Shown: one piece after another, positions 4,217 to 53,632 of the stretch
How the letters are laid out: each line of letters begins with the position of its first letter
How positions within the stretch are numbered: position 1 is the stretch's first letter
Origin: an uncultured Gammaproteobacteria bacterium
GTDB lineage: Bacteria > Patescibacteriota > Microgenomatia > Levybacterales > JACOYD01
Length of the DNA stretch: 55,413 nt
NCBI GenBank assembly: GCA_964445095.1
Contig: CAYUJR010000001.1
Span: 48,283-103,695 of the forward strand
Reading direction: 5' to 3'
Program-made: the position numbers and the translations under genes
Notes under the pieces: generated by a model
Database searches by the model: none
Seen by the model: only the letters and a program-made list of their open reading frames with translations
What the model was told of the DNA's origin: nothing

Positions 4217-5023
4217 TTAGCTTGGGTAATTCCTTTCGAAATATTCTACGTCTTTGGGGGTGCCAAGACCCCAGACTTGAGGAATAATGGCTGCCTTTAC
4301 CTTTATCCCTTTATTAATCAGTCTTTGATACATCGGCGCCACATAAAATTCCTGCTTACCCGCAGCTCCGTACATATCATTTTGAGCTATCATTTCTTCT
4401 GCTTCTTTAACAAACACATTTCCGTGCGTAAAATAATATCCGCCAATATTGGCATAAGCTCCTTTAGCAGCCAGCTCCGGATCTTTTTCTCCCACGGCTA
4501 TTGCAGTTTTATTCTTGTCAAACAGCGTATAGCTCCATTTTACTTCTTCGTCAGGTGGTGGAAATACCGGAATTATTCCTTCTATATCTGACTCTTTTTC
4601 TTGGATAGCTTGATATAAATTTGTGCCATCAAAGTAGTGATCGGAATCAGAAACAATAATATCCTCGTTACTGTTAATATATTCTTTGGCCTGGAGCGTT
4701 GTCTCAACAGCTCCTCGAGTCACTTCCGGAATAAGAATAATGTGAATGCCAGGACCAAACAATTGCTTCAATAAGTCAACAATTTTGTATTCCTCCTGTT
4801 GCTCTTGTAGAGAGATAAAAATTAGATCTCGGGGAGATACTTTTAATTCGGTCTTGGCTGGTCTTTGAGGTAGATCAAGAAATGGTAAAGATTCCATTGC
4901 CCAGATGATCATGGGTTTTCCTTTTACTAAAATTAGAGGTTTGGGTTTTTTATATTCCGGGTTTTGATCGGCTACTGCCTGGAATCTCGAACCTCTTCCG
5001 GCCATTGGTACGATAATTTTCAT
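4217..5023 (-). CDS. Sugar/polyol-phosphate nucleotidyltransferase (NTP_transferase fold), paralog A
   Basis: MKIIVPMAGRGSRF..KPKPLILVKGKPMIIWAMES N-terminal nucleotide-binding signature. Clear paralog of 5020..5736, with a shared C-terminal GTPxDVxYFE. ATGA overlap with the upstream gene. Confidence 0.75.
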   Translation of the reverse strand: MKIIVPMAGRGSRFQAVADQNPEYKKPKPLILVKGKPMIIWAMESLPFLDLPQRPAKTELKVSPRDLIFISLQEQQEEYKIVDLLKQLFGPGIHIILIPEVTRGAVETTLQAKEYINSNEDIIVSDSDHYFDGTNLYQAIQEKESDIEGIIPVFPPPDEEVKWSYTLFDKNKTAIAVGEKDPELAAKGAYANIGGYYFTHGNVFVKEAEEMIAQNDMYGAAGKQEFYVAPMYQRLINKGIKVKAAIIPQVWGLGTPKDVEYFERNYPS

Positions 5024-5736
5024 ACTTTATAATATTTTTCAAAATAAGCTACGTCTTCGGGAGTGCCCATACTCCACATAAAATCTGTCTCCACCGCCTT
5101 AATTTTCTCTCCCCTGCCAATAAGCTCATTATACACCGGACAAACATAAAACTCATTATTGCGGCGAATGTCTTTTCTAATCATCTCCTCGGCCGCCCAA
5201 ACAAAATCCTTCCCCTTTTTAAAATAATAAAGGCCGACTGTGGCGTGATTTGAAATGGGAACTTTCTCTGCTACTTCTGTAACCATTCCTTTTTCATTGA
5301 CTTTGGCAAAACTCCAGCGAGGATGGGTAGCTTCAAATACCGGGATTAGTCCGACATATTTTTTTCTCTTCAACTCTTTCTCAAAATCTTTAGCGCCAAA
5401 ATAGTGATCGGTATTAGAGATTATTAACTCCTCGTCATTGTTAATATAATCCTTGGCCAGTAGGGCAGATATTGCCGCACCCTGGGTCACTCCATCAGTC
5501 AACAAAACGTTAATCTTTTTGCCAAAAAGCTTCTTCAAATTCCCCACTATGGCATGTTTTTCTTCATGATCTCTTAGGCAAATAAAAATAATTCGGGAAT
5601 TTTTAATAAATGAGAGCGAATCTACTGCCCAGGCAATCATTGGCTTGTCTCTCACGACAATAAGCGGCTTTGGAGCAGTAAATCCTGCCTCCTTAAATCT
5701 CGATGCTCGTCCAGCAGAAAGAAATAAAATGTTCAT
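5020..5736 (-). CDS. Sugar/polyol-phosphate nucleotidyltransferase (NTP_transferase fold), paralog B
   Basis: MNILFLSAGRASRF..APKPLIVVRDKPMIAWAVDS, and C-terminal GTPEDVAYFEKYY. ATGA overlaps on both sides. Confidence 0.75.
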   Translation of the reverse strand: MNILFLSAGRASRFKEAGFTAPKPLIVVRDKPMIAWAVDSLSFIKNSRIIFICLRDHEEKHAIVGNLKKLFGKKINVLLTDGVTQGAAISALLAKDYINNDEELIISNTDHYFGAKDFEKELKRKKYVGLIPVFEATHPRWSFAKVNEKGMVTEVAEKVPISNHATVGLYYFKKGKDFVWAAEEMIRKDIRRNNEFYVCPVYNELIGRGEKIKAVETDFMWSMGTPEDVAYFEKYYKV

Positions 5737-7280
5737 AAGTTTTCCAGCGCTCTTTTTTTATAATGCATTATTTCCCTATCCACTTCTTTTTTTAATTTGA
5801 AAATATCTTTATTGGCATTATATAACTCTTTATAAATAATGAAAAGACTGGCATAACAATTATGATGGTGCATATTGGGAATGTAACTGATTCTTATCTT
5901 AATCATCCCGCTGGCTTCCTTCACGCTTTTAATTACTTTTCTGGCTTTTAAGGTAAAAATAAATGCCCCAAAAGCTGTTGTTTCTACTTCCGCAAGCACA
6001 TTGACCGGTAGGCCTAAGAAATCTGCTCTAAGTTTGGCGGCAAAAGGAATTTTAGCTACTCCTCCGGAGAAATTAATAGAAGATATTTTAAAGCCGTTTT
6101 TCTCAAATTCTTCTAACATCATCTTGGCCTGAAAACCCATTGCCTCAAAAATACTTCTAGCAAAATCCTTTCTGCTATGAAAACGCTCTACTCCAAAAAA
6201 CATGCCTCGGACGTCTGAATCAAAGAAGGGTACTCGCTCCCCTAACAAATGAGGTAAAAACATCAGACCATTTGCTCCTAACTCACTTTCTTGGGCTTCT
6301 TTTTCCATTAGGCTATAAAGAAAAATTTCGTCTTTAAGAAAATCACTGTAAAAAGATTCTTTAAACCATTCTAATGCTCCACCCTCTAAATTATTAGAGC
6401 CACCAATAATAGACAATTTTTCACCCGGGAAGTTTTGCGTAATCAGCTTGTTGGAGAGGGAAAGAGTATTAGTTTTTGAAAATAGTCTGTAAGAAGAACA
6501 TGTTCCGCAAACATTATTTAACTCACCCTCTTCATAAGTACTGCTGCCTACCAGCGCACAAATAGCATCATACGTACTAAGGATCACTTTGACCGAATGA
6601 GAAATCCCTAATTGCTTTTTTAACTTATCTTCCATTTCTCCCAACACCGTGCCCGGTCTAGCAACTCCAGGGAGATTATTTGCCGATATACCGATGAATC
6701 TTAAAATTTGCTGAGGATAATTTTTTTTGCCAGGTTCAAAATAAAACTTCTCCGCGTTTAAATTATCTGTCACAAACTTATTGGTGAGTTTATATATCAA
6801 AAAGTCATTGGCAGAGAGGAACTTTTTGGCTTTGTGAAAAACTTTTTGTTTATGTTTTTTAAACCAAAATACTTTAGGTAACATATAGCTAGGGTCTATC
6901 TTGAAAGATTTATATCTTTGGAAAAAATCTGAAAATCTCCCTGCTAATAATTTACTTTCTTGCTCGGCCCTTTTATCGGAAACCATGTATGATTTATCCA
7001 ACACGTTTCCGTCTTTATCAAAAATAACTAAACAAAGGGCTGAAGAAGTCACGGTGATGTAACGGACGCGGGTGGAAAGTTTTTTATTATTGAATACTTT
7101 TTTGAGCAGTTCCTGCAACAATTCCCACCATTCATTAGGATCTTGCTCTATGGTTAAATTATTAATATAAGTTCTAACCGGCAACCAATCCTCATAAACC
7201 TTCTCTCCGCTATCATTAAAAATAATGAGGCGGATGCTTCTTAGGCTAAGATTAACTACCAGAGTCAATATTGATAACAT
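5733..7280 (-). CDS. FGGY-family carbohydrate/polyol kinase (divergent N-terminal ATP motif)
   Basis: 515 aa. EQDPNEWWE after the first beta-hairpin is typical of xylulo/glycerol-kinase relatives. STYDAICALVGS holds the catalytic Asp region, and there is a C-terminal FGGY_C-like GGVAK segment. The N-terminal DxGT motif reads VVNLSLRSIR. Confidence 0.7.
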   Translation of the reverse strand: MLSILTLVVNLSLRSIRLIIFNDSGEKVYEDWLPVRTYINNLTIEQDPNEWWELLQELLKKVFNNKKLSTRVRYITVTSSALCLVIFDKDGNVLDKSYMVSDKRAEQESKLLAGRFSDFFQRYKSFKIDPSYMLPKVFWFKKHKQKVFHKAKKFLSANDFLIYKLTNKFVTDNLNAEKFYFEPGKKNYPQQILRFIGISANNLPGVARPGTVLGEMEDKLKKQLGISHSVKVILSTYDAICALVGSSTYEEGELNNVCGTCSSYRLFSKTNTLSLSNKLITQNFPGEKLSIIGGSNNLEGGALEWFKESFYSDFLKDEIFLYSLMEKEAQESELGANGLMFLPHLLGERVPFFDSDVRGMFFGVERFHSRKDFARSIFEAMGFQAKMMLEEFEKNGFKISSINFSGGVAKIPFAAKLRADFLGLPVNVLAEVETTAFGAFIFTLKARKVIKSVKEASGMIKIRISYIPNMHHHNCYASLFIIYKELYNANKDIFKLKKEVDREIMHYKKRALENL

Positions 7281-7283
7281 AAT

Positions 7284-8459
7284 TTAATGGCGGGTAAGAA
7301 AATTATATATCTTCGTTTTGGTGATCATTGGGAATATCAAACGTAAAATTTTGGCAGTTATTGGTAATCGCGAGCTATAATAATTGGCTAGACGAATTAT
7401 TCTCCGCGCTGGAACATCGCTTAAATTATACCAGAGCTGCCTCTTTCTATTAGAGAACTGACGTCTAGGAAGTCTACCAAACCTCCAGGAAAGAGAAAGA
7501 CAGGAGGAAAATAGATTAAATCTGGGAAGAAAGCCATATTCGGTCAAATGATGGCTGTATTCTATGTCTTCACCTTGCCCCCAGTATAATGTCTCATTCC
7601 AAGGAACTTTTTCCCAAATATATTTTTTGATGATGGTTAGCATCCCCCCAATGTAAACAAATTTATTCCAATCACGATAATCCAACTCATCAATTTTATA
7701 GACTACGTTTGCCGTCTTAAACGACTCATTAATGCTAACCCAATCTCCAGTTCTTGTCCCATCTGCCAGCTTTTGCACACAAGTCAAAACCTCGAAATTG
7801 TTACCATATTTTTTCATTCCCCTATACCAATCTTTATTAAAAACAATTCTGTCATGGAATATGCAAAGATTGACATATCTAGCATTCTCTGCAATGATAT
7901 TCTTTTTTCTGGTAATCCATCCCCTATCATCTCTCTCGATGAACTTGATATATCTAATATCTTTTGCCTTTTTCCCATTATAGAATCCACAAACTATTAT
8001 CTCGTAATGGGGAATTTTAAGATCTCTGATTGATTGGATTGCCTTTTCTATAAAATCGCGCCGCACGCCATTAGTTACCATACCAAATGTCCAATAATCT
8101 ATTCCCTGCTCAGGTCTTACCAAACTGACTGCTTTTCGAATAATAAGCTTATAACTGTTTCGCTTAAGATCGTGCTCGATGATTTTATACTGTCTTTTAA
8201 ATAACCACCATAAAGTCTGCTCTAGATACCCACTACTTAAATCAACAGTTTTGGGAGAATAAAGAATGTTTAATTCTCCGTTTTCTTTCAGGAGAGAAAA
8301 AAATTCCTTCAATAGAATTGGTAGAAATTTACTATTGCCCCTATTTAAGCAGTGCTGCAGGTTGATAACATCGAAACTCTCCAGCCGGAACTGGGTGGTG
8401 GGATGATAAAGATTATTAATTTTTTTTCCATCGGATTTCTTTAACGTTAATACTTTCAT
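7284..8459 (-). CDS. Putative GT-A-fold glycosyltransferase with extra N-terminal domain
   Basis: C-terminal half has YEIIVCG.., CIFHDRIVF (in the DxD position) and GQGEDIEYSHHL (GT2-like ED motif). The N-terminal ~120 aa are unrecognised. Confidence 0.5.
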   Translation of the reverse strand: MKVLTLKKSDGKKINNLYHPTTQFRLESFDVINLQHCLNRGNSKFLPILLKEFFSLLKENGELNILYSPKTVDLSSGYLEQTLWWLFKRQYKIIEHDLKRNSYKLIIRKAVSLVRPEQGIDYWTFGMVTNGVRRDFIEKAIQSIRDLKIPHYEIIVCGFYNGKKAKDIRYIKFIERDDRGWITRKKNIIAENARYVNLCIFHDRIVFNKDWYRGMKKYGNNFEVLTCVQKLADGTRTGDWVSINESFKTANVVYKIDELDYRDWNKFVYIGGMLTIIKKYIWEKVPWNETLYWGQGEDIEYSHHLTEYGFLPRFNLFSSCLSLSWRFGRLPRRQFSNRKRQLWYNLSDVPARRIIRLANYYSSRLPITAKILRLIFPMITKTKIYNFLTRH

Positions 8460-9769
8460 TTCTTTTTAAGAAAGTCAGAAATACTCTCGGCTATATAATC
8501 TATTTCTCTGTTTCCCAATCCTGGATAAATACCCACAAAAAAGTTGCTATATAAAACTCTGTCTGCATTTTCCAGCTTTCCTATCTTTCTGTAATTAACC
8601 CGAGTATAAGCTGGTTGACGAGTAATGTTACCAGCAAATAAAGGTCTAGTTTGAATCATTCTACTTTCCAAAAACATGGTTATTTCGTGTCTGGTAAAAC
8701 CTACGCCGTCTCTGATTGTCAGAGGATAAGAAAACCAGCAGGGTTTGGCCTTTGGCAGTGATTTAGGAAGAATGAAGTATTTTTCCCACTCTCTGGCATA
8801 TTTATCAAAACGCTCAAAGTTCATTTTTCGCTTTTTGATAAAATAAGGCATTCGTTTTAGCTGCTCGACTCCCATGGCCGCTTGTGGCTCAATCGGTTTT
8901 AGATTATAACCAATTTGATTAAAAATATATTTATGATCATATGGCTTACCATTAATACTGTAATTAAAACGAACTCCGCAGGCTCCCAAGGTCCTTTTTT
9001 CATCTCCCCTACACCAACAACCTCGACCCCAATCTCGTAGCGAACGGGTAATCCGCTCAAATCTAAAATCATTATAATGAATAGCTCCACCTTCTCCCAT
9101 AGTCATATGATGCGGTGGATAAAAAGATTGGGTAGCTAAAATACCGAAACTACCAGTCCTTTTACCATCGTATTCCGACCCCAAAGCATCACAATTATCC
9201 TCAACTAATAATAGATTATTTTTGTTGCAAAAACTTACAATCTTTTCCATTTCATTTGGATTACCCAAGGTATGCGCCAACATCACCAAACGGGTTTTTT
9301 TAGACAGAGCTTTTTCTAGATCATTAGCATTTATATTATAAGTTTCTGGATTAACATCTAAAAAAACAGGTTTTAAGCCATATACTACCAGTGGATTAAC
9401 CGTGGTTGGAAAACCGCAGGCAGAAGTAATAACTTCATCGCCTATATTTAGGTGGCCGGTAAACATATAAGACATTAAGGAAGCTACAGCTAGAAAGTTG
9501 GAACTTGAGCCGGAATTAGTAAGAATACTTCCCCGAGCACCAACAAATCTTGCTAGTCCATTTTCCAGCTCTTGGGCTTTTTTCCCTAAACCAAACCAAC
9601 CGTCAATTAGTACGCTTACGCTGGAGTTAATTTCTTTGTCGTCAAAAACCCCGCCTGCATATTGAATCCATGTTTTACCGGGGATAAACTTCTTTTTTTT
9701 CTTACGCAAAGAAAAAATTTTAGTAATCCGCTCTCTAATTTGTTTTCGTAATATTTCTTCGCTGTCCAC
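8456..9769 (-). CDS. rfbH: RfbH/DdhC (E1)-type NDP-4-keto-6-deoxyhexose 3-dehydrase, DegT/DnrJ/EryC1 aminotransferase fold
   Basis: 437 aa. Contains NSGSSSNFLA, GDEVITSACGFPTTVNP, AHTLGN and EDNCDALG. SFYPPHHMTMGEGG has His in place of the Schiff-base Lys. DWGRGCWCRG..GACG is a Cys cluster resembling the E1 [2Fe-2S] site. Also LFAGNITRQPAY and IYPGL. Confidence 0.85.
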   Translation of the reverse strand: MDSEEILRKQIRERITKIFSLRKKKKKFIPGKTWIQYAGGVFDDKEINSSVSVLIDGWFGLGKKAQELENGLARFVGARGSILTNSGSSSNFLAVASLMSYMFTGHLNIGDEVITSACGFPTTVNPLVVYGLKPVFLDVNPETYNINANDLEKALSKKTRLVMLAHTLGNPNEMEKIVSFCNKNNLLLVEDNCDALGSEYDGKRTGSFGILATQSFYPPHHMTMGEGGAIHYNDFRFERITRSLRDWGRGCWCRGDEKRTLGACGVRFNYSINGKPYDHKYIFNQIGYNLKPIEPQAAMGVEQLKRMPYFIKKRKMNFERFDKYAREWEKYFILPKSLPKAKPCWFSYPLTIRDGVGFTRHEITMFLESRMIQTRPLFAGNITRQPAYTRVNYRKIGKLENADRVLYSNFFVGIYPGLGNREIDYIAESISDFLKKK

Positions 9770-13662: not shown

Positions 13663-14411
13663 GAAGACTTTTTAAATTTATTGTTTTTGTAGTAGTTAAG
13701 GATTTTAAGGCGATAGAAAACTGCCATCGTGTCCCATAACATCAGAAAAATTATTTTAATAAAATTTTCCCACGTAATATTACTACCTTTCTGAAAATTT
13801 ATTTCTATCGGAGCTTCATAAATTCTCTTGAAGCCCAAACTATAAGCAACTGCCAAGATTTCTACATCAAAGGCATACTTTTTAACTAATAGTCTAGGTA
13901 ATACATTTTTTATCACTTTCCTTTTAAAAAATTTAAGACCGACTTGAGTATCCCGAACTTTAAAGCCAAAAAGAATTCTAGTCAAAAGCCTATATCCCCA
14001 AGATAGAACTATCCTATACCAAGGGTAGTTAATTTTGGAAACAGGGTGTAATTTTGAACCTATAATTATATCCGCATTATACCAATCCAAATGATTAAGT
14101 AACATGGAAAAACCACTAGGATTAATATCCATACCACTGTCTATAAAACCAACGATATCTCCCTTTGCTCTCATCATCCCTACTCTTACAGCATGTCCTT
14201 TACCTTGATTTTTTTTATAGCCGATTATTTTTACATTATCCGAGGCTAGTTTTTGGGCGTTTTTAAAGGTTTTATCTACCATCCCGTCAACAACAACAAT
14301 TACTTCAAAAGTATATTGAAGACTTTCTAGGATAGATTTTATTCTGGTCAAATCCCTAGCAATAGTTCTCTCTTGCTTAAAAGCCGGAATGATGACTGAT
14401 ATTTTTGGCAT
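13659..14411 (-). CDS. DPM1/GtrB-like GT2, predicted polyprenyl-phosphate sugar synthase
   Basis: ISVIIPAFKQERTI, VVVDGMVD, KNQGKGHAV, FIDSGMD and FDVEILAVAYSLGFKRIYEAPI, which is the DPM1-like C-terminal region. Confidence 0.7.
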   Translation of the reverse strand: MPKISVIIPAFKQERTIARDLTRIKSILESLQYTFEVIVVVDGMVDKTFKNAQKLASDNVKIIGYKKNQGKGHAVRVGMMRAKGDIVGFIDSGMDINPSGFSMLLNHLDWYNADIIIGSKLHPVSKINYPWYRIVLSWGYRLLTRILFGFKVRDTQVGLKFFKRKVIKNVLPRLLVKKYAFDVEILAVAYSLGFKRIYEAPIEINFQKGSNITWENFIKIIFLMLWDTMAVFYRLKILNYYKNNKFKKSS

Positions 14412-42465: not shown

Positions 42466-42476
42466 AGTTTCAATTT

Positions 42477-48125: not shown

Positions 48126-50415
48126 AGATAAATTCTATCTGGCTTTCTCCGGCTGGAATAACAACTGCCCGAAAGGTGTAATCTGCTCTATAAATTTTAA
48201 CATCTTCTCCGCTTAATTTTGCTTTCCAACCGGGGTAAAAATTATCCGAGAGAAATAAAAATGCTGGACTGTCGGTCTTGACGGCAATAATAATTTTATT
48301 CGGGGTATATGAAATAATTTGGGCGCTTCCGCTGCCTTCTTTGCTTGGCGCAAAAAAAGGCTTATCTTCTACAATCAATGTCTTTCTAAAATCAAAGCTA
48401 TCGCTGTAAAATCTTTTGATTATTTCCCGATCGCTTTTTATCACCTCAAAATTATAAAAGAGTAAAGCTCTGGGTAATGCTAGATTATTTTTAAATAGCT
48501 GATGCTTGCTGTCTTGATAAGCCAATGTATATCTTTTTGGGTCCTGCCAAACCGGATAAGCCCAGCCGGCATTAGTATCGCTGATAGGATTAAAAATTAA
48601 AGAAACTCCTAATAGGTCTAACGCTCGGTCGGTAAATCTTCCCCGCCTATCAAGGTTTACCACCGACCGTTCTCCCTGTAAAAATTCTCCTGTACCCGCG
48701 CTTCTTATAAATTCGCCATAGCGGTTGACGTATAAAGGATCATAGCCTTCAATAATAGGAAAACCGTAATAAGAAGAAACCCCTGCTCCAATATTGCCAA
48801 AGATTCGCCCGCCCCCAATATTTTTTTTAATCGCCTCAATAACAGGAACCGGCGGATAAACTAATCCTTTTGGATCAAACGGCATCCATTTTTGGGCGAA
48901 GCGAAGGCTGTCGAAAGAAGCAACAAGTAACAGGTAACAAGTAATAAGTAATATAAATTTTTTATTAATTTTTAAAAGACCAACAAAAAATACTACGCCT
49001 ATAAATAATACTGTCGGCAAGACTAAATTTCTTTTTGCCACAATCAGCCATTCCTGTGGATATACTTTTCCAAAAAACAGCAGAAGCCAAATGGAAGCAA
49101 AAAAAACTGCCACCAAGGTAAATAATGCTATCATCTTTTTATTTTCCCTAACATCTCTAATTCCCCTAATTTCCCCAATGAGCCGGTCAAAACCAAATCC
49201 CGCCAGAACCGCCAGCGAAAAACTAAACAAAACAATAATTCTTGATTGAGCGCTTGTTGATAAAACAGGAATTTTTAAGGAGACTATAATATTAGAAATA
49301 TTAAGATTAATAGGAATATTATAAATATAAAAAACTGGGATGTATACAGCAAGAAGAAGTGATACTACTGCTAAAATTACAAAAAATGATATTTTCTTTA
49401 TCTGTATTCTCAAAATTGCATAAATGGCAAGCATTAATGGGATGATGCCGATAAACGACGCCCATTCGGCATAATGCCCAAACCAGTCATTTCGAGTAAC
49501 AGGATTACCAAAAAAATCCGGCGAAAAAACAGTAACAAGATATTGAAAAGGTATCGCCTCGCCTACTTGAAAAAGCTCACTGCGAACCGATTGACCATAA
49601 AGTCTTATCGATGGTAAGAGCTGTGGCAGTGAAAGAACTAAACCTAATAAAATAGCAACTAGCAATTGGTAATTAGCAATTAGTTTTTTAACCGATAGTG
49701 CATTAAAAAAAGTATAAGCAATAATTGCTACTAGAAAATATAAACCTATTTGAAAATGACCGGAGAAAAACGACAGAGGAATTGTCAGAGCAAGTAGTGC
49801 CAAAAAACGTATTTGTCTTTGCTGATAATATTTTTCAATAGCAAAAAGAGCAAGCGGCAAATATAAAATTGCAAAAGCCAATGTTCCATAAGCCATCCAT
49901 ACCACGATGAAGCCACAGAACATAAAACTAATACTACCAATCAGTAATCCCGTAGCGCTTATCTTAAGCGTTTTTAAAAACATCGACATGAAAATTCCTG
50001 CTAATAATGGTTGTAGAAGAATTAAAATGCTCCAGGCATCGATAAAGGGAAGTAAGGAAAAAAGAGCATTTCCAGGGGAAAGTACCGCCGATTGAAAATT
50101 GGCTAAATGAGGATTGCCGGAAAAACTATATGGGTTCCATAAGGGTATCTGACCGTTTTTCCACGTTTCGATAGTAAATTTCTTCCAGGGGTATATTTGG
50201 GTATGAACATCAGGCATGGCATTATTTTTGACCGGTCCCCAAAATTGTTCATAATGACTCCAGGGGGCAAAAAAATTTACCTGATAAGTCGAGGCATAGG
50301 GAACTTTTTCCTTAATAAAATAAGGACTGGCAAAAATAAACCAAAGCCCGAAGATAAAAATAATCGGCCAGAATCTTAATAAAAAGTTTTTAGTTTTAAG
50401 TTGTAGTTTTGACAT
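48106..50415 (-). CDS. YfhO-family GT-C membrane glycosyltransferase, paralog D of 4
   Basis: FFAPWSHY..IYPWKKF..NGQIPLWNPYSFSGNPH. C-terminal LSDNFYPGWKAKLSGEDVKIYRADYTFRAVVIPAGE. Start set to MSKLQLKTKN (ATG 50415). The track extension to 50502 would overlap the upstream GT2 by 107 nt. Confidence 0.8.
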   Translation of the reverse strand: MSKLQLKTKNFLLRFWPIIFIFGLWFIFASPYFIKEKVPYASTYQVNFFAPWSHYEQFWGPVKNNAMPDVHTQIYPWKKFTIETWKNGQIPLWNPYSFSGNPHLANFQSAVLSPGNALFSLLPFIDAWSILILLQPLLAGIFMSMFLKTLKISATGLLIGSISFMFCGFIVVWMAYGTLAFAILYLPLALFAIEKYYQQRQIRFLALLALTIPLSFFSGHFQIGLYFLVAIIAYTFFNALSVKKLIANYQLLVAILLGLVLSLPQLLPSIRLYGQSVRSELFQVGEAIPFQYLVTVFSPDFFGNPVTRNDWFGHYAEWASFIGIIPLMLAIYAILRIQIKKISFFVILAVVSLLLAVYIPVFYIYNIPINLNISNIIVSLKIPVLSTSAQSRIIVLFSFSLAVLAGFGFDRLIGEIRGIRDVRENKKMIALFTLVAVFFASIWLLLFFGKVYPQEWLIVAKRNLVLPTVLFIGVVFFVGLLKINKKFILLITCYLLLVASFDSLRFAQKWMPFDPKGLVYPPVPVIEAIKKNIGGGRIFGNIGAGVSSYYGFPIIEGYDPLYVNRYGEFIRSAGTGEFLQGERSVVNLDRRGRFTDRALDLLGVSLIFNPISDTNAGWAYPVWQDPKRYTLAYQDSKHQLFKNNLALPRALLFYNFEVIKSDREIIKRFYSDSFDFRKTLIVEDKPFFAPSKEGSGSAQIISYTPNKIIIAVKTDSPAFLFLSDNFYPGWKAKLSGEDVKIYRADYTFRAVVIPAGESQIEFIYENWYL
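48920..48954. repeat. Imperfect GTAACAA-type heptamer array in YfhO-like paralog D
   Basis: gcaacaa gtaacag gtaacaa gtaataa gtaatat. Encodes a TM segment, LLITCYLLLVA. Confidence 0.7.
49654..49688. repeat. Imperfect AGCAAYT-type heptamer array in YfhO-like paralog D
   Basis: agcaact agcaatt ggtaatt agcaatt agttttt. Encodes LIANYQLLVAI. Confidence 0.7.
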
Positions 50416-51175
50416 TTGAGTTTTGCGATTTGAGATTATTCTGTAACTCCCAAAGTCTGGCATAAGTAATAAACATACTAAAAGCTTGATATATACTCTC
50501 AATTAGTCCTACCGTCCCCGCCTTCCAACCGCTCTGTCTTATATACGAATCAAAAAATGCGGTAAGCATTACACGCGGAAACCGCCACCATGTCATTTGA
50601 GGATGTCCCGCTTTTAGCCGTAGCTCTGCCTCAATTTTAGACCACTCGATAGTTTTCTCAACCATTGAAGTAAAGTCTTTGTGCGTATAATGCAGTAGGA
50701 ATCCATCAAGCTCCCCTATTTTTCCATCAATAACCGGACTTTCGTGAAGCTGCCCTCGCCATTCTTTTAATGCATCTTTTCTAAAAAGCCGCTCTATTTT
50801 CTCAATATACGGCCACTCGTGCTTTCCGAAGTAGAAATTTTTCCTGCTAATCCTAAAAACAGCATAATTTTGATATTTGATATTTGATATTTGATATTTG
50901 ATATTGTCGCGAAGCGACGTTGTTATCCGTTCATCCGTATCCACATACAAAACCCATTCCCCTTTTGCCTCTTGTAATCCCTTATTTCTCAACTGGGCAA
51001 AACTGTCTGTATTAATAGTCAAGACTTTAGCCTTAAGATATTTAGCAACTTCTGCCGTCCTATCTGTCGACGAGTTATCAACTACAATTACCTCATCGGC
51101 AAAATCAACAGAGGTGATGGCATCAGCAATCTCACCCTCCGCATTTTTAGCAATAATAATAATTGACAGCTTCAT
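50396..51175 (-). CDS. Glycosyltransferase family 2 carrying a perfect heptanucleotide tract
   Basis: LSIIIIAKNAEGEI, VVDNSSTDRTAEVAK, VDTDE and RISRKNFYFGKHEWPY. Paralog of 21045..21800 and 52724..53632. Confidence 0.8.
   Translation of the reverse strand: MKLSIIIIAKNAEGEIADAITSVDFADEVIVVDNSSTDRTAEVAKYLKAKVLTINTDSFAQLRNKGLQEAKGEWVLYVDTDERITTSLRDNIKYQISNIKYQNYAVFRISRKNFYFGKHEWPYIEKIERLFRKDALKEWRGQLHESPVIDGKIGELDGFLLHYTHKDFTSMVEKTIEWSKIEAELRLKAGHPQMTWWRFPRVMLTAFFDSYIRQSGWKAGTVGLIESIYQAFSMFITYARLWELQNNLKSQNSNVKTTT
50414..50437. repeat. Imperfect ATTTGAG-family heptamers at the GT2 stop / YfhO start overlap
   Basis: atttgag ttttgcg atttgag att. Covers the C-terminal tail of 50396..51175 and lies immediately upstream of, and overlaps, the YfhO-like D start codon (ATG 50415). 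Confidence 0.6.
50869..50906. repeat. Perfect heptanucleotide tandem repeat (TTTGATA) about 5.4 copies, in-frame in a GT2 gene
   Basis: Five exact units at 50869-50903 plus a partial ttg. The coding-sense unit ATATCAA encodes NIKYQISNIKYQ. Confidence 0.95.
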
Positions 51176-52080
51176 AACTCGTAGCTTCCTCTACCAAATT
51201 TTCCCAGGTAAAAATCCAGCGCTCCTCTTTTTTGCCATAATCTACCATTGATTAATAACCCGAAACTTTCTCGCAAAAGTGCTAGTTTTGACCGAAGCGG
51301 TGCATATCTTATGCCAAAAAGCAACCGGTTTCTGGTAATGTAATAATCTTGAAGTGAGGAACCAGAACCGCCTGCTGAACCGGCGTTTTTGTGCCAGAGC
51401 ACTGCTCTTGGATTAAATACTATTTTAAAACCGGCTTTTTTTGCTCGAAGAGAAAAATCACTGTCTTCATAATACAAAAAATATTTATTGTCTAACATCC
51501 CAATTCTTTCAAAAACGCTTCTTTTAATCATCATGCAACACCCACTGGCGAAATCCGTTTCTTCTTCTTTTTCATATTGACCACCGTCAACATCGTCAAC
51601 GCCCCGGTGTCTACCAACGACATTTTCCCAATCAACTATTCCTCCCGCATACCAAATAACTTTCCCCAAATCTTCCTTTTTATATCTGTCTTTATGAAAT
51701 TCAAAACTAGGGGCAAAGTAAATTTTGGGGGCCACCATTCCGATCTTTTTGTCCGATTCTGCAACTTTAACAAGTTCGTTAACCAAATTTTTATCAACAA
51801 CAGTATCATTATTCAGAATAATAACGTACTCTGCCCCATTTCTTAGTGCATAATTAATGCCAACATTATTCCCTCCCGCAAATCCTAAATTCTCTTTATT
51901 TCTAATAATCTCTACCCTTTCCCCTTTACCCTCTACCCTAAACTCTTCTTTTGATCCGTTATCAACAACAATAGTTTGTAGTTTGTAGTTTGTAGTTTGT
52001 AGTTGACTAAGGCTCTCTAGGCACTCCAGTGTATCTCTAGTCCCATTCCAATGGAGGATGATTATAAAAACAGTTTTCAT
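51172..52080 (-). CDS. Glycosyltransferase family 2 (WbbL/rhamnosyltransferase-like class) carrying a perfect heptanucleotide tract
   Basis: VFIIILHWNGTRDTLECLESL, VVDNGS, NLGFAGGNNVG, ILNNDT and FLYYEDSDFSLR. Confidence 0.85.
   Translation of the reverse strand: MKTVFIIILHWNGTRDTLECLESLSQLQTTNYKLQTIVVDNGSKEEFRVEGKGERVEIIRNKENLGFAGGNNVGINYALRNGAEYVIILNNDTVVDKNLVNELVKVAESDKKIGMVAPKIYFAPSFEFHKDRYKKEDLGKVIWYAGGIVDWENVVGRHRGVDDVDGGQYEKEEETDFASGCCMMIKRSVFERIGMLDNKYFLYYEDSDFSLRAKKAGFKIVFNPRAVLWHKNAGSAGGSGSSLQDYYITRNRLLFGIRYAPLRSKLALLRESFGLLINGRLWQKRGALDFYLGKFGRGSYEL
51972..52004. repeat. Perfect heptanucleotide tandem repeat (TAGTTTG) about 4.7 copies, in-frame in a GT2 gene
   Basis: Four exact units at 51972-51999 plus a partial tagtt. 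The coding-sense unit CAAACTA encodes QLQTTNYKLQT. Confidence 0.95.
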
Positions 52081-52727
52081 TCCGTAGTAATTTTTACTCT
52101 GGCTTGAATAAGTTGAGTGCGGGCTCCTAATTGAGTTTTCATTTGCACCCGATAAAGCTTGTTGCCACTACCTAATCCCAAGGCAGTAGAAATCAATAGC
52201 TTTGGCTCTCCTCCTTCTATAGAAAGCTCCGAGGGCCATACCATATTTTTATCGCTCACATTATATAGTCTGACATAAGTTGTCTGATTACCGGTGGGAG
52301 TATAAAGCGAGGCTTCAAAAACTGCACTTTTTATCCGACCGTATTTAGTATTATCTATGTAGGTCTCAACTCCTGGAACATCTGTCCAATCCTTGGCTGT
52401 ACTCTCGCCTGAACCTAGCGATATCAAAAATTCCCGAGCCGGCCCAGCTACTTGACTGCCAATCGCACTAGTATTTTGCGCAGGAACAATATTAATAGAT
52501 GCTGTAGCTATTTTTACTATCTCTTCTACTTCCTGCCGAGTAATACCTATAGCATCAGCAGAAGCTGTCGCTACCGACTGCGATCCTCGTTCCACAAAAA
52601 CAACTTGCTTTTCCGGTAGATTTTTTTCCTGAACAAAAAATTTATAATCTAATAATATTAGATTACCTAAAGCGAGCAGTAAAATTATTCCCGCTAAAGC
52701 CAGTAGAACCCTTCGTAGTTTAGTCAT
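52077..52727 (-). CDS. Membrane-anchored extracytoplasmic protein of unknown function
   Basis: Start set to MTKLRRVLLALAGIILLLALGNLILL (ATGA overlap with the upstream stop at 52724). It has a single N-terminal TM anchor followed by a beta-rich soluble domain. No recognisable motif. Confidence 0.5.
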   Translation of the reverse strand: MTKLRRVLLALAGIILLLALGNLILLDYKFFVQEKNLPEKQVVFVERGSQSVATASADAIGITRQEVEEIVKIATASINIVPAQNTSAIGSQVAGPAREFLISLGSGESTAKDWTDVPGVETYIDNTKYGRIKSAVFEASLYTPTGNQTTYVRLYNVSDKNMVWPSELSIEGGEPKLLISTALGLGSGNKLYRVQMKTQLGARTQLIQARVKITTE

Positions 52728-53632
52728 AAAAACTTCCTTTGCAGTTTTAATAATAATTTTTCCCAAATATTTTTACTGTCATTTAAGCGTGCTGTGATTA
52801 GCCAAAAATTTAACTCTCCTCTTAGCTTTTTTGACTCATTCTGGAGCGAATTGAGGGAAATTTTGTCCGTCGGCGCAAAATTTTTCTTCTCCCAAACAGT
52901 CACAAAAACAATCAAATGATAAAAGGCCATTAGTAGGCTTAAAACTAGTCCATGAAGTCCATCTTTATAACCTTGTTGGGCAAAAAAACGATTAATGAAC
53001 TCTTTGGCCGGCATCCTAATGCTATCCAAGTAGTTGAATTGATAATTATTTCTTAGCAGGTTTTGAGCTTCGTTGGGAGTATAAATATAGGTAAGTTTAT
53101 TTAAAAATTGACTGACATTATCGTAGTTTAAGTGCTCGAGATGGTTAGTCAATTTTTCTGTGAGGCCGGCAACTTCTACCATTTCATGAACATGCCGTTC
53201 GGGAAACTTACCCTTGCCTTTCTTGAATAACCTTAATTGATAGTCCGGATACCAACCGGTGTGACGCATCCATTTGCCAAAAATGATATTTTTTCTGGGA
53301 ATCCAGTAGCCACTGATGGCTGATGGCTGATGGCTGATGGCTAAGAGTATTTCTTTTTTAAGCTCTGGTGTAACTCGTTCATCCGCATCCAAACTAAGAA
53401 TCCAATCTCCCGTGGCTTTAGTAAATCCGAAGTTCTTATTGACATTAAGCATTGGGTTGTTGGACCGGGCATAGATTCTTGAGGTGTATTCTTTGGCAAT
53501 TTGGGCGGTTTTATCGGTTGAGGAGTTATCAATAAATATTATCTCATCCGCCAGCTGGCAGATTGACCCTAGACAATCGCGAATCTTGTCTTCCTCATTA
53601 AAAGCAGAGATAACTACCGACAGTCCTATCAC
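52724..53632 (-). CDS. Glycosyltransferase family 2 carrying a perfect heptanucleotide tract
   Basis: GTG start. LSVVISAFNEEDKI, FIDNSSTDKTAQIAK, SLDADE and GYWIPRKNIIFGKWMRHTGWYPDY. Confidence 0.8.
   Translation of the reverse strand: MIGLSVVISAFNEEDKIRDCLGSICQLADEIIFIDNSSTDKTAQIAKEYTSRIYARSNNPMLNVNKNFGFTKATGDWILSLDADERVTPELKKEILLAISHQPSAISGYWIPRKNIIFGKWMRHTGWYPDYQLRLFKKGKGKFPERHVHEMVEVAGLTEKLTNHLEHLNYDNVSQFLNKLTYIYTPNEAQNLLRNNYQFNYLDSIRMPAKEFINRFFAQQGYKDGLHGLVLSLLMAFYHLIVFVTVWEKKNFAPTDKISLNSLQNESKKLRGELNFWLITARLNDSKNIWEKLLLKLQRKFL
53313..53342. repeat. Perfect heptanucleotide tandem repeat (CTGATGG) about 4.3 copies, in-frame in a GT2 gene
   Basis: Four exact units at 53313-53340 plus a partial ct. 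The coding-sense unit CCATCAG encodes ISHQPSAIS. Confidence 0.95.

Follow-up and report, generated by a model that had tools for sequence, protein, structure and literature searches.

Organization of the Locus

The window (the whole stretch of 55,413 nucleotides analyzed here) contains 40 close-packed genes between positions 4217 and 53632, 39 of which are called as open reading frames on the minus strand, with a lone plus-strand gene at 42477-43187. Across the 40 same-strand junctions, the median spacing is -4 nt, with 31 overlaps and a largest gap of 34 nt, and all 29 junctions of the block running from 42405 down to 4217 are of 10 nt or less. An earlier note had described this region as co-directional, which holds for 39 of the 40 genes, one being inverted, and had placed its end at 53632, which does not stand, given that the minus-strand array is dense from the right edge of the window down to 4217 and, by synteny, continues past that edge. 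The gene content set out in the same note was recovered almost gene for gene by profile, structure, and homolog evidence. There is only one site at which transcription has to start anew, for the downstream 38-kb block, and promoter-like hexamers are present there on both strands, with the scan as a whole not above chance:

42406-42476, no strand: divergent intergenic region, 71 nt

The source, a groundwater bacterium with a tiny genome, belongs to the Microgenomates, in the Candidate Phyla Radiation (CPR), and is Levybacteria-like. The genomes nearest to the window in the homology search are Levybacteria, and the matches include one complete Levyibacteriota chromosome of 762,565 bp, in keeping with the small-genome organism that had been guessed. 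Judged from sequence, the region, an operon-like block of approximately 50 kb, probably makes up most of a supercluster for envelope glycans in a Levybacteria-type bacterium.

The GT-C Glycosyltransferases

The core of the array is formed by 16 polytopic proteins other than the flippases, each with 7-12 predicted transmembrane (TM) segments (hydropathy), which comprise four YfhO, seven PMT_2, two PTPS_related, two GT87/MptA-B-like, and one PIG-V-like GT-C proteins. They form six sequence groups, that is, YfhO, a five-member PMT_2 paralog group, two further PMT_2 proteins, PTPS_related, GT87-like, and PIG-V-like:

48106-50415, minus: YfhO no. 1, 52.9 bits; 11 TM segments; first-loop Asp kept; ortholog 67% identical; probable start ATG 50415, 769-aa gene call on a Logan contig
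44825-47071, minus: YfhO no. 2, 126 bits; 12 TM segments; ortholog 59% identical
39020-41392, minus: YfhO no. 3, 92.7 bits; Levybacteria orthologs 48-49% identical
37800-39023, minus: GT87/DUF2029-like; homologs 60-70% identical, carrying PF09594/PF26314 and named "glycosyltransferase 87 family"
36194-37810, minus: PMT_2-group paralog, 21.4 bits; DE motif kept; full-length paralog of the next protein (E 1e-73)
34489-36192, minus: PMT_2/PMT paralog (Pfam, paralogy, first-loop motif)
32064-34505, minus: YfhO no. 4, 49.3 bits; full-length paralog of the other three
30442-32094, minus: PMT_2/PMT paralog (Pfam, paralogy, first-loop motif)
28817-30445, minus: PMT_2/PMT paralog (Pfam, paralogy, first-loop motif)
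27564-28820, minus: short PMT_2, ArnT-like, 418 aa, 27.6 bits; ortholog 49% identical
24848-26494, minus: PMT_2 paralog, 28.2 bits (also paralogy, first-loop motif)
23202-24851, minus: PTPS_related, 42.9 bits; hhalign to YfhO family 99.7%
21811-23235, minus: PMT_2, ArnT-like, 474 aa, 86.6 bits (PMT 52 bits)
19367-20518, minus: MptA/B-family (GT87-like); TIGR03459 (MptA) 4e-10; ortholog tagged PF26314
17823-19409, minus: PTPS_related, 61.5 bits
15672-16757, minus: PIG-V/Gpi18-like; homologs carry PF04188 (PIG-V), PF13231, and PF09594

The possibility that transporters or membrane proteins of unrelated kinds make up most of this set, with the array being an artefact of annotation, might draw on the fact that three of the 16 (15672-16757, 37800-39023, and 19367-20518) have no Pfam match of their own, and that the protein at 36194-37810 falls below the PMT_2 gathering cut-off of 26.1 bits. 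The other 12 exceed their gathering scores (four YfhO, six PMT_2, and two PTPS_related), and homolog Pfam tags, NCBIfam matches, and hhalign links all indicate the GT-C, including a 97% probability between 19367-20518 and the 37800-39023 family. The first-loop acidic residue is kept in every GT-C family alignment and is present in all 13 of the checked window members of multi-member families, with the PMT-type "DE" in the five-member PMT_2 group, and the three single-copy proteins have equivalent first-loop residues that are likewise conserved in the alignments of their families.

Two confident AF2 models point in the same direction. In the case of 37800-39023 (pLDDT 83), which is better conserved than any other GT-C of the array, the top nine PDB matches in Foldseek are GT-C-fold proteins, including GPI mannosyltransferase I, ALG6, STT3, and PimE, while all of the top 41 fold matches of 15672-16757 (pLDDT 90.9) are GT-C-fold proteins. 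As no solved structure is detectable by sequence for YfhO or PTPS_related, the assignment of these two families derives from Pfam family knowledge and the profile links. The artefact reading is thus extremely improbable, and is effectively refuted by the profiles, homolog tags, first-loop residues, and structure models; the profile, homolog, and structure searches returned GT-C enzymes rather than transporters, and both the 16 candidates and the classes proposed for them (five plus two PMT_2, four YfhO, two PTPS-related, one PIG-V-like, and two DUF2029/GT87-like) were reproduced.

Donor Synthases, Flippases, and Other Genes

The array also encodes DPM1-like synthases, flippases, and further glycosyltransferases:

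54926-55413, minus: second MOP/Wzx-type flippase, 3' part (~160 codons), cut by the right window edge, frame open to the end
52724-53632, minus: GT2, Glycos_transf_2 97.6 bits; ortholog 59% identical
51172-52080, minus: GT2, rhamnosyltransferase-like, Glycos_transf_2 64 bits; TIGR01556 92 bits, below cut-off
50396-51175, minus: GT2, Glycos_transf_2 59.9 bits
47040-48125, minus: GT4 (GT-B), Glycos_transf_1 69.5 bits
43914-44828, minus: generic GT2 with C-terminal TM segment, GtrB likeness not supported (Pfam, hydropathy)
43171-43917, minus: DPM1/Ppm1-type polyprenyl-phosphate sugar synthase a; AglJ 125 bits, Dol-P-hexose transferase and PpgS near full length, ArnC partial; no TM segments
42477-43187, plus: DPM1-type synthase b, the sole inverted gene (NCBIfam, PDB profile)
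21045-21800, minus: GT2 (Pfam)
16762-17826, minus: GT4 (Pfam)
14377-15684, minus: complete MOP/Wzx-type flippase, Polysacc_synt_3 46.9 bits; 11 TM segments
13659-14411, minus: DPM1-type synthase c (Pfam, NCBIfam, PDB profile)
11675-12787, minus: GT4 (Pfam)
10675-11697, minus: GT2 with C-terminal TM segment (Pfam, hydropathy)
7284-8459, minus: orphan 391-aa protein, possible GT-A domain (weak GT-A signal)

The three DPM1-like enzymes of the earlier note were upheld by near-full-length NCBIfam matches to AglJ, Dol-P-hexose transferase, or PpgS, with ArnC matching partially, and by a top PDB profile match to the Pyrococcus DPMS (5mlz, 9e-29). The inversion of synthase b is also kept in two Levybacteria (L002 and L015). 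The complete flippase lies directly upstream of synthase c, which it overlaps. The open reading frame of the edge flippase (54926-55312) represents the C-terminal part of a protein of approximately 485 aa, to judge from homologs of 479-495 aa in 30 loci, two of which score 158-166 bits on Polysacc_synt_3; a DPM1-like gene directly precedes the MOP gene in 27 of these 30 loci. Both flippases had been anticipated, as had the three GT4 enzymes. Six of the seven other GT2/GT-A enzymes claimed were found; the seventh is probably the orphan at 7284-8459, which has no Pfam family and a weak chondroitin-synthase match (0.0066), with no significant hhalign alignment to the DPM1-like proteins, and whose 97 homologs include a few named ones from Microgenomates and DPANN MAGs.

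The sugar-nucleotide genes were likewise confirmed, and are accompanied by a small number of accessory and non-glycan genes:

54388-54918, minus: RibD_C/DHFR-like gene (Pfam)
53664-54353, minus: ECF-transporter S component (Pfam)
52077-52766, minus: 229-aa protein, one N-terminal TM segment, no Pfam or NCBIfam family; homologs at the equal position in three loci
41371-42405, minus: SDR sugar-nucleotide epimerase/dehydratase, Epimerase 171 bits
26498-27571, minus: SDR sugar-nucleotide epimerase/dehydratase (Pfam)
20515-21078, minus: DUF5667 protein, N-terminal TM/signal segment; equal position in a Levybacteria genome
12784-13662, minus: HAD-like hydrolase, weak match (Pfam, NCBIfam); ortholog at the equal position
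9770-10678, minus: SDR epimerase/dehydratase (Pfam)
8456-9769, minus: DegT-type sugar aminotransferase, DegT_DnrJ_EryC1 255 bits
5733-7280, minus: FGGY sugar kinase, xylulokinase-like (Pfam, NCBIfam)
5020-5736 and 4217-5023, minus: two paralogous sugar-phosphate nucleotidyltransferases (Pfam, paralogy)

The RibD_C/DHFR-like and ECF genes (53664-54918) are a non-glycan insertion that separates the edge flippase from the first GT2. This pair has a counterpart in no related locus, and is found on contigs of ~1.0-1.6 kb in three other assemblies.

The absence of an initiating phosphoglycosyltransferase (PGT), Wzy, Wzz, and ligase was borne out, with no Pfam match to these families within the window; a PGT gene could lie elsewhere in the genome, outside the window and the ~20-kb loci.

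Conservation of the Array

The order PTPS-PTPS-DPM1-MOP-GT2x3-YfhO-GT4-YfhO-GT2-DPM1-GT87-PMT_2 and onward recurs in dozens of Microgenomates genomes, spanning the Levy-, Curtiss-, Gottesman-, and Chisholmbacteria, so that the gene set is syntenic, rather than scattered, in the relatives. In the Levybacteria contig JACOXU010000001, for example, the order of both halves is kept over a span of ~48 kb, in proteins that are only 25-66% identical. The paralogs share 46-67% identity with their orthologs versus 23-38% with each other, and in 14 of the 16 GT-C the orthologs are clearly closer than the paralogs of the window, which implies that each paralog has been kept separately. On this sequence evidence, the GT-C paralogs appear to be ancient and specialized.

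The array had been singled out as unusual, and this is valid in comparison with non-CPR bacteria, which have 1-3 GT-C per locus, but not within the Microgenomates-like (CPR-type) loci, which have a median of seven per ~20-kb locus. A large number of GT-C is thus the rule in these loci, a trait of the lineage rather than an oddity of a single genome. That close and distant relatives share the block suggests a complex surface glycan that has yet to be described.

Heptanucleotide Repeats

Perfect heptanucleotide tracts are found inside three consecutive GT2 genes (50396-51175, 51172-52080, and 52724-53632), respectively (motifs on the coding strand):

50869-50905, minus: TATCAAA x5.3
51972-52004, minus: CAAACTA x4.7
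53313-53342, minus: CCATCAG x4.3

These tracts, which also occur at recurrent positions in orthologs, are candidate phase-variation switches, and may indicate a repertoire for surface variation, in which many of the paralogs would be alternatives rather than sequential steps, with a subset expressed per cell and the repeats switching paralogs, so as to vary the glycan in defense against phages or in recognizing the host. A change of one or two copies would truncate the proteins of the three genes, to 102-131 aa in the case of the tract at 50869-50905, and degenerate 7-nt tracts are present in DPM1-like, YfhO, and PMT_2 genes. In 1.1 Mb of related clusters, the long perfect tandem repeats are almost exclusively of period 7, with none in randomized sequence. 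Heptanucleotide repeats are also accepted mediators of phase variation in Haemophilus (PMC2651432). The tracts here are short (4-5 copies), however, no variation in copy number was observed, the reading frames are intact in every assembly examined, and the one-to-one correspondence of the GT-C paralogs across genomes is a better fit for fixed roles than for interchangeable alternatives, which makes a repertoire of this type an unlikely explanation of the array as a whole.

Proposed Pathway and Comparison with Known Systems

[quoted passage not shown] The nucleotidyltransferases, kinase, SDR enzymes, and DegT aminotransferase would, from their family membership, supply the nucleotide sugars. 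The three TM-less DPM1/Ppm1-type GT2, together with a fourth DPM1-like gene that is probably located just past the window edge, may then attach single sugars to polyprenyl phosphate on the inner side of the membrane, as their homology suggests, and the soluble or peripheral GT2 and GT4 would assemble a short lipid-linked primer. As there is no PGT, this primer probably starts from a polyprenyl-monophosphate-sugar (cf. the archaeal AglJ) or a membrane glycolipid (cf. PimA/PimB). The two Wzx/MOP flippases, each adjoining a DPM1-like gene, may take the lipid-linked sugars, the primer, or both outward, and each of the 16 GT-C, on the basis of fold and motif, is predicted to form a single linkage type on the outside of the membrane. 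The set would thereby build or decorate a complex, lineage-specific glycoconjugate, with most of the paralogs having their own ortholog in the relatives. Candidate acceptors are lipoglycans, wall polysaccharides, and surface glycoproteins.

It is rather doubtful that the acceptors are mainly proteins, with the array serving for protein O-glycosylation in the manner of PMT or of the streptococcal Pgf system, in which S-layer, pilus, or other envelope proteins would be glycosylated on Ser/Thr and the glycans then extended outside the membrane. The five paralogs with the PMT-family "DE" match PF02366 (PMT) as well as PMT_2, Pmt1/2/4 are among the fold matches of the 15672-16757 model, and streptococcal systems of GT-C plus GT2 are reported to glycosylate Ser/Thr-rich regions (PMC12041528). 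The cluster nevertheless has no MIR domain matches and no obvious Ser/Thr-rich substrate gene, the GT87/MptA-B-like and PIG-V-like members are similar to enzymes whose substrates are lipid-linked glycans, and PMT_2 also includes lipid-modifying enzymes of the ArnT type.

With only three DPM1-like synthases to supply donors to 16 GT-C, either several GT-C draw on the same donor or some of them use lipid-linked oligosaccharides. This ratio, and the lack of a recognized polymerase in the window, would also suit a set of co-located but independent three-component modules, each of which would attach one side-chain sugar to polymers already formed elsewhere (teichoic-acid-like or wall polysaccharides), as in the decoration of LTA, WTA, and rhamnan by the characterized YfhO and PMT_2 enzymes of Gram-positive bacteria, in the examples given in PMC8035078 and PMC5836110. 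The window, on the other hand, has no Pfam match to a teichoic-acid polymerase (Glyphos_transf), LtaS, or LCP ligase, and the strict co-linear order over ~48 kb, together with the co-located GT2/GT4, flippase, and sugar-nucleotide genes, is more compatible with one pathway than with unrelated decorations. Independent modules are thus improbable, to a degree similar to the protein reading, and the 16 GT-C may act on one product rather than several.

Precedents exist for several parts of the assembly line. In Haloferax, for example, initiation on Dol-P is PGT-free, and sugars are added outside from Dol-P-Man via AglD/AglR/AglS (PMC3871713). Against the assembly-line reading, the window genes include neither a GtrA-type flippase nor a small membrane protein of the GacJ kind that could partner the TM-less synthases. 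Published variants of multi-component transmembrane glycosylation combine a Wzx-type flippase with a TM-less GT-A (PMC8035078), and GacI/J/K/L, like the array, includes both of these together with a GT-C (PMC8035078). The sequence of donor synthesis, flipping, and transfer put forward in the earlier note matches the published scheme (PMC8035078), as a predicted function in the present case.

Membrane Glycosyltransferases of the Array

The assignment of the genes to families is based on a hydropathy scan and on sequence searches against Pfam, NCBIfam, and the PDB. The inventory of glycosyltransferase classes drawn up in the earlier note, from the sequence alone, stands throughout, given that the results from Pfam, NCBIfam, the PDB, the structural models, and the partner genes agree, and the only entry left over is a seventh "other GT-A" enzyme, probably the open reading frame (ORF) at 7284–8459, which has a weak GT-A signal. 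The 16 polytopic membrane glycosyltransferases (GT-C) are as follows.

Table. GT-C candidates of the window, by family.
48106–50415 (−), YfhO
44825–47071 (−), YfhO
39020–41392 (−), YfhO
32064–34505 (−), YfhO
36194–37810 (−), PMT_2, five-member paralog group
34489–36192 (−), PMT_2, five-member paralog group
30442–32094 (−), PMT_2, five-member paralog group
28817–30445 (−), PMT_2, five-member paralog group
24848–26494 (−), PMT_2, five-member paralog group
27564–28820 (−), other PMT_2
21811–23235 (−), other PMT_2
23202–24851 (−), PTPS_related
17823–19409 (−), PTPS_related
37800–39023 (−), no Pfam match of its own
19367–20518 (−), no Pfam match of its own
15672–16757 (−), no Pfam match of its own

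All 16 candidates have 7–12 transmembrane (TM) segments in the hydropathy scan, and 12 exceed the Pfam gathering score; the remaining four are backed by homolog tags, paralogy, hhalign, and Foldseek. The PMT_2 match of 36194–37810, for example, is sub-threshold (21.4 bits), and this protein has a full-length paralog in the window at an E value of 1e-73. The homologs of 15672–16757 are tagged PF04188 (PIG-V/Gpi18), PF13231, and PF09594, and the best 41 PDB fold matches of its AlphaFold model (pLDDT 90.9) are all of the GT-C fold, including AglB, ArnT, STT3, ALG12/9/3, Pmt, Emb, and PimE. In the case of 37800–39023, the homologs are tagged PF09594/PF26314 and named "glycosyltransferase 87 family" in the Levybacteria, and the fold matches of the model (pLDDT 83) include GPI mannosyltransferase I (TM-score 0.55), ALG6, STT3, PimE, and ALG12. 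Both of the modelled proteins are all-helical. The protein at 19367–20518 matches MptA (TIGR03459) at 4e-10, and has an ortholog tagged PF26314 (MptA_B_family).

The PDB sequence searches with the YfhO and PTPS profiles recovered no relatives, and the PMT_2 profile found only a weak STT3 match. For the YfhO and PTPS_related families, no solved structure could be found by sequence. Profile–profile comparisons of the hhalign type, using family alignments from the related loci, linked YfhO to PTPS_related (99.7%), the two PMT_2 groups to one another (99.8%), PMT_2 to PTPS (97.5%), and the two GT87-like proteins to one another (97%). The first loop, which follows TM1, has a conserved acidic residue in every GT-C family, in 90–100% of the family members; all of the window proteins that belong to the four multi-member families (13 of 13) carry it, and the three single-copy proteins have first-loop acidic residues that are conserved in their family alignments. 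The GT-C paralogs look free of degenerate copies. The enzymes would use polyprenyl-phosphate-linked donors, a putative donor chemistry with which the co-located DPM1-like synthases agree.

The five-member PMT_2 group has the PMT-type Asp-Glu pair in the first loop. Protein O-glycosylation as the main purpose of the array is a rival explanation that may be considered beside these residues, and beside the envelope glycoconjugate that is the preferred product here.

Two of the PMT_2 paralogs share a 97-nt stretch (29205–29301 and 34925–35021) that is 82% identical, in proteins that are approximately 35% identical. Degenerate TATCAAA-type repeats overlap with this stretch, which encodes '..ISNIQI(R/K)YPIY..FIFNF.YYL.QY' and could represent local gene conversion or the parallel growth of the repeats.

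Candidate Donor Synthases, Flippases, and Absent Functions

The three DPM1-like GT2 enzymes are TM-less, have 236–250 aa, and form a single subgroup. Together with the flippases, they are located as follows.

Table. Candidate donor synthases and flippases.
43171–43917 (−), DPM1-like GT2
42477–43187 (+), DPM1-like GT2
13659–14411 (−), DPM1-like GT2
14377–15684 (−), MOP/Wzx flippase (Polysacc_synt_3)
54926–55312 (−), C-terminal part of a second MOP flippase (the edge flippase), with the frame open to the window end

The near-full-length NCBIfam matches of the DPM1-like trio are AglJ, a haloarchaeal Dol-P-hexose transferase, or PpgS, with a partial match to ArnC, and AglJ is the top match for two of the three. 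In the PDB, the DPM1-like profile matched the Pyrococcus Dol-P-Man synthase 5mlz at 9e-29, over nearly its full length, followed by GtrB and ArnC. By homology only, these enzymes are candidate C55-P-monosaccharide synthases. The window also encodes six further GT2 and three GT4 glycosyltransferases. Two TM-bearing GT2 proteins, at 43914–44828 and 10675–11697, were considered as GtrB/DPMS-like synthases, and are better described as generic GT2 enzymes, given that only the N-terminal GT2 core matches.

Both of the MOP flippases adjoin DPM1-like genes, which in the case of the edge flippase is known from its counterparts in relatives. The homologs of the edge flippase have 479–495 aa, and their Polysacc_synt_3 scores reach 166 bits. 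The possibility that this fragment (128 aa, 4 TM) is a GtrA-type flippase paired with DPM1 is ruled out by the open frame and by the MOP homologs of approximately 485 aa. No small flippase of the GtrA type was found in the array, which has no spare coding space, its largest gap being 71 nt. The sugar-nucleotide genes encode three SDR epimerase/dehydratases, a DegT aminotransferase, an FGGY kinase, two nucleotidyltransferases, and an HAD-like protein.

Two small single-TM proteins, 20515–21078 (DUF5667) and 52077–52766 (229 aa), keep their cluster positions in relatives, and could be accessory or acceptor-binding partners of the GT-C enzymes.

The Pfam searches of all 47 window proteins bear out the observation of the earlier note that no initiating phosphoglycosyltransferase (PGT, of the WecA/WbaP type), Wzy, Wzz, or O-antigen ligase can be recognized in the window, where Wzx, represented by 14377–15684 and the edge gene, is the part of a Wzx/Wzy locus that is present. 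Pfam also detected no LCP ligase, teichoic-acid polymerase (TagF/TarL), LtaS, or STT3-type transferase in the window. The related loci include 83 ORFs with no window counterpart, and the PGT is absent from their 25 most frequent Pfam families. The idea that a PGT, Wzy, or ligase adjoins the cluster in relatives was set aside, as these ORFs yielded methyltransferases, PMT_2, DUF2079, and UDP-glucose dehydrogenase.

In loci L005–L071, the same 83 ORFs include 14 SAM methyltransferases, 14 divergent PMT_2 proteins, four DUF2079 membrane proteins, UDP-glucose dehydrogenases, and one Phosphoesterase-family protein.

The ORF at 7284–8459 (391 aa) represents an orphan family with 97 homologs, none of which has a Pfam domain, and the few named homologs are from Microgenomates (Levy- and Blackburnbacteria) and DPANN-labelled MAGs. 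Its GT-A signal (chondroitin synthase, E 0.0066) is weak, and it is at most a possible GT-A enzyme.

Layout and Transcription of the Array

The window has a G+C content of 36–40% and no tRNA genes, and its minus-strand ORFs are densely packed from the right window edge down to 4217, with the DPM1-like gene at 42477–43187 (+) as the sole inverted gene of the array. At the 40 same-strand junctions, the median distance is −4 nt, 31 are overlaps, and 16 are overlaps of exactly 4 nt; every gap is of 10 nt or less over the 38 kb from 42405 to 4217. The largest gap of the array is the 71-nt divergent spacer at 42406–42476, which is the only point at which transcription must restart. In promoter and terminator scans of the window, the totals were no higher than expected from shuffled sequences, with hexamers seen in real gaps, the Rfam search of the window returned no matches, and the DNA repeat search found only paralog motifs and simple sequence repeats (SSRs).

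The RibD_C/DHFR-like gene and the gene of an ECF-transporter S component (53664–54918) separate the edge flippase from the first GT2 gene, and occupy that place in none of the related loci. In three other assemblies, the pair is found on contigs of its own, of approximately 1.0–1.6 kb, identical to the window. This pair is an insertion particular to the lineage of the window.

The downstream flank contains an FkbM-type methyltransferase (345–1241, −), a GDPD phosphodiesterase (1281–2177, +), a 308-aa protein with an HExxH motif (2191–3117, −), and an inositol-monophosphatase-family gene (3174–4211, +) that adjoins the cluster. Two perfect (12/12) hexamer pairs of the sigma-70 type (1242–1269 and 3157–3185) lie directly before the two plus-strand genes. 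Any tie of this flank to the metabolism of polyols or inositol lipids is no more than a lead.

Conservation and Synteny in Relatives

A scan with the YfhO alignment, with one genome per species, confirmed 578 relatives, the closest of which are from Candidatus Levybacteria (48–49% identity), followed by Curtiss-, Gottesman-, and Chisholmbacteria, and unnamed Patescibacteria. When all of the ORFs of 79 loci were mapped onto the window proteins, a recurrent order was obtained: PTPS, PTPS, DPM1-like, MOP, GT2, GT2, GT2, YfhO, GT4, YfhO, GT2, DPM1-like, (GT87-like), PMT_2, PMT_2, and so on. In the Microgenomates-like (CPR-type) loci of at least 15 kb, the median is seven GT-C genes (3.1 per 10 kb, in comparison with 3.24 per 10 kb in the window), whereas those of Planctomycetia, Chloroflexota, Omnitrophota, and comparable phyla have a median of one.

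In the Levybacteria contig JACOXU010000001, the stretches 280897–298221 and 250153–271274 (fetched separately) follow the gene order of the window in its upstream and its downstream half, respectively, so the order of both halves is kept within approximately 48 kb. The match spans DUF5667, GT87-like, PTPS, GT4, PIG-V-like, MOP, DPM1-like, HAD-like, GT4, GT2, and SDR genes, and the proteins are 25–66% identical to those of the window.

Orthologs of 14 of the 16 GT-C proteins are found elsewhere at 46–67% identity, and the best paralog within the window reaches 23–38%. The GT-C duplications are old, with every copy retained. The GT87-like protein at 37800–39023 is 60–70% identical over more than 120 clusters, in contrast with the 46–67% of the other GT-C proteins to their best orthologs, and this greater conservation suggests a core role, possibly in an early step. 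The tail at 4217–9769 has no close counterpart in the compared loci, with only a distant match of the DegT gene (27.5% identity), and looks like a variable sugar-supply module. A variable repertoire is a rival reading of the array as a whole, and the preferred reading remains that of an assembly line.

In 27 of 30 loci of relatives, a DPM1-like gene and additional GT-C genes stand ahead of the edge flippase, and the cluster therefore almost certainly continues past the window. Exact matches to the proteins neighbouring this flippase are found only on contigs of approximately 1.0–1.6 kb.

Numerous MAG records titled "uncultured Gammaproteobacteria bacterium" (L003, L008, L010–L013, and many more of the related loci) carry a Microgenomates-type cluster in the same order, as does one titled "Candidatus Pacearchaeota archaeon" (L025). 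The Gammaproteobacteria titles look like placeholder labels, and the labels or the binning look unreliable; alternatively to mislabelling, the DPANN-titled copy may represent gene transfer.

Heptanucleotide Tracts

The Tandem Repeats Finder returned 48 rows for the window, 18 with a period of 7, all located at 15.8–53.4 kb. The three perfect tracts lie in three consecutive GT2 genes.

Table. Heptanucleotide tracts of the window.
50869–50905, perfect, 5.3 copies, in a GT2 gene
51972–52004, perfect, 4.7 copies, in a GT2 gene
53313–53342, perfect, 4.3 copies, in a GT2 gene
43705–43728, degenerate
50385–50437, degenerate
34989–35039, degenerate
30890–30922, degenerate
48918–48951, degenerate
49653–49683, degenerate
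51913–51939, degenerate

Such tracts are also found at the related loci L002, L005, L011, L014, L018, L021, L027, L032, L036, L049, L060, and L084. In 1.1 Mb of CPR-type loci, the perfect tracts of at least 24 nt have a period of 7 (17 tracts), 14 (two), or 8 (one), with none of any other period from 1 to 15, and five Markov-1 randomisations produced no such perfect tracts. In the window, too, almost every long perfect tandem repeat has a period of 7. The tracts of orthologs recur at the same protein positions, often with other units, before 'GYWIPR' and 'VVDNGS' in two GT2 proteins and before 'SFDSLRF' in YfhO, and they are also present in DPM1-like, PMT_2, and PTPS genes. The unit TATCAAA is found in two separate genes of the window.

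Each of the three GT2 ORFs thus contains a tandem repeat with a unit that is not a multiple of three, so a change of one or two copies breaks the frame, cutting each protein to 34–143 aa, and a change of three restores it. In Haemophilus, heptanucleotide SSRs count as accepted phase-variation candidates (PMC2651432). By this sequence signature of a contingency locus, the tracts are candidate phase-variation switches; a neutral slippage bias of these genomes is a possible source of the tracts. A pattern scan of the JGI metagenomes for SSR alleles found none. One Logan contig ends inside one of the tracts, where a k=31 graph would probably break anyway, and the NCBI record is the only one that has the three SSR-bearing proteins.

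A Proposed Assembly Line and Its Significance

In the proposed mechanism, a GT-A enzyme would make a C55-P-sugar, a flippase would export it, and a GT-C enzyme would transfer the sugar outside the membrane. The Wzx-type flippases would be paired with the DPM1-like synthases in place of a GtrA-type flippase, with C55-P-sugars as their presumed substrates, and initiation would occur with no PGT, on a polyprenyl-monophosphate or a membrane glycolipid. Candidate GT-A synthases and 16 GT-C genes are present in the same array, in keeping with the published scheme of multi-component transmembrane glycosylation (PMC8035078), with the Wzx-type alternative to the GtrA-type flippase that is known from GacK. 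This match, together with the precedents for PGT-free initiation, is the reason for adopting an extracytoplasmic assembly line, which would build or heavily decorate a lineage-specific envelope glycoconjugate; as a general mechanism, this reading is given a probability of roughly 70%. It is less probable that all 16 GT-C enzymes serve one product, and both the order of the steps and the acceptor are conjectural.

A more complete scenario is put forward only tentatively, as it is rather unlikely to hold in all its parts. The Microgenomates would here build a complex, previously undescribed envelope glycoconjugate on the densest known extracytoplasmic GT-C line, of at least 16 enzymes (probably more than 20 with the part outside the window), started without a PGT on a polyprenyl-monophosphate or glycolipid, with Wzx–DPM1 pairing, and with a composition switched by the heptanucleotide phase variation of cytoplasmic GT2 and some membrane glycosyltransferase genes.

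The mechanism class is already known, and single genes are already labelled GT39, GT87, or DUF2029 in the public records. In searches of the full-text literature outside subscription journals, no account of GT-C arrays, or of YfhO, PMT, or other glycosyltransferase clusters, came up for CPR, Patescibacteria, or Microgenomates. What appears to be new is the presence of at least 16 GT-C genes in one conserved operon-like block in a genome close to 1 Mb, the mix of families in the array, the MOP–DPM1 pairing with neither a GtrA-type flippase nor a PGT, and the heptanucleotide tracts.

Most CPR bacteria are episymbionts that have not been cultured, and their genomes are of approximately 1 Mb; the question addressed here is how they build up their envelope and attach. 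The block, of approximately 49 kb, would represent some 6% of the 0.76-Mb chromosome of a relative, and the GT-C genes account for 27 kb, over half of the block. This size, and an order kept across several candidate phyla, point to a major, selected surface structure. The array offers concrete enzymes, an ordered gene set, and a predicted glycoconjugate for testing, and, if the tracts vary in copy number, they would be the first sign, in the literature covered, of contingency-locus phase variation of the surface glycans of CPR bacteria.

Comparison with Known Systems

The Gram-positive multi-component glycosylation systems include CsbB/GtcA/YfhO, GtlA/GtcA/GtlB, and GacI/GacJ/GacK/GacL (PMC8035078; PMC5836110), with a Gac variant that combines a TM-less GT-A enzyme with a Wzx-type flippase (PMC8035078). 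As proposed for the window, a GT2 enzyme makes the C55-P-monosaccharide, a flippase follows, and a YfhO- or PMT_2-type GT-C enzyme acts outside. However, these systems have one GT-C per module and 1–3 modules per genome, whereas the window has 16 GT-C proteins in six sequence groups and three donor synthases. They also decorate a polymer from a separate pathway, whereas the window has no recognisable backbone pathway, and it lacks both their GtrA-type flippase and their GacJ-like partner. A set of independent decoration modules is a rival explanation, to be weighed against the single array and its recurrent order.

The Corynebacterineae build LM/LAM and arabinogalactan with PimA/PimB' (GT4), Ppm1, PimE, MptA/MptB/MptC (GT87), EmbA/B/C, and AftA-D. 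In mycobacterial PIM/LM/LAM synthesis, which needs no PGT, a membrane lipid is primed by GT4 enzymes and then extended from polyprenyl-phosphate-mannose by GT-C enzymes, GT87 members among them. The PimE of this pathway has been described (PMC12041525). Here, as proposed for the window, numerous GT-C enzymes work one after another outside the membrane, with polyprenyl-phosphate sugars, on a glycolipid or other lipid-linked primer from cytoplasmic GT4/GT2 enzymes. At the family level, the GT87/MptA-B-like proteins and the TM-less Ppm1-type synthases of the window resemble those of this pathway, with all of the NCBIfam scores falling far short of the equivalog cut-offs. The three GT4 genes of the window, and the inositol-monophosphatase-family gene beside the cluster, are at most a lead towards a possible phosphatidylinositol-based anchor, of the kind made by PimA/PimB-type GT4 enzymes. 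The mycobacterial GT-C genes are scattered across a genome of 4.4 Mb, where no cluster has more than about half a dozen of them, whereas those of the window form one array, in which neither the Emb/Aft arabinosyltransferases, the decaprenyl-phosphoribose pathway, nor the PI synthase was recognised. YfhO and PTPS_related dominate the window, and its host, a CPR bacterium, has approximately 1 Mb of genome or less.

The Agl N-glycosylation pathway of Haloferax volcanii comprises AglJ/G/I/E, AglD, AglR, AglS, and AglB. In it, glycan synthesis begins on dolichyl monophosphate with AglJ, the final mannose is attached outside by AglD/AglR/AglS, and the MOP/Wzx-like AglR is tied to Dol-P-Man delivery (PMC3871713). 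The start by a DPM1-like GT2 with no PGT, and the use of a lipid-linked monosaccharide outside, are like those proposed for the window. However, Haloferax has a single outside step, in contrast with sixteen, and an oligosaccharyltransferase of the AglB/STT3 type, which was not detected in the window, and, given the low NCBIfam scores, the AglJ match is a likeness, not orthology.

In the GT-C pathways of the eukaryotic ER lumen, ALG3/9/12/6/8/10, PIG-M/V/B/Z, and PMT, as a series of GT-C paralogs, extend oligosaccharides stepwise with Dol-P-Man or Dol-P-Glc, and the fold matches of the two modelled GT-C proteins of the window include ALG6, ALG9, ALG12, ALG3, and GPI mannosyltransferase I. The window differs from these pathways in being a bacterial operon of the families YfhO and PTPS_related, with no sign of a Dol-PP-linked core or a GPI anchor. 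The array would be a third large multi-GT-C assembly system, after those of the mycobacterial envelope and the eukaryotic ER, and one that uses YfhO and PTPS_related enzymes.
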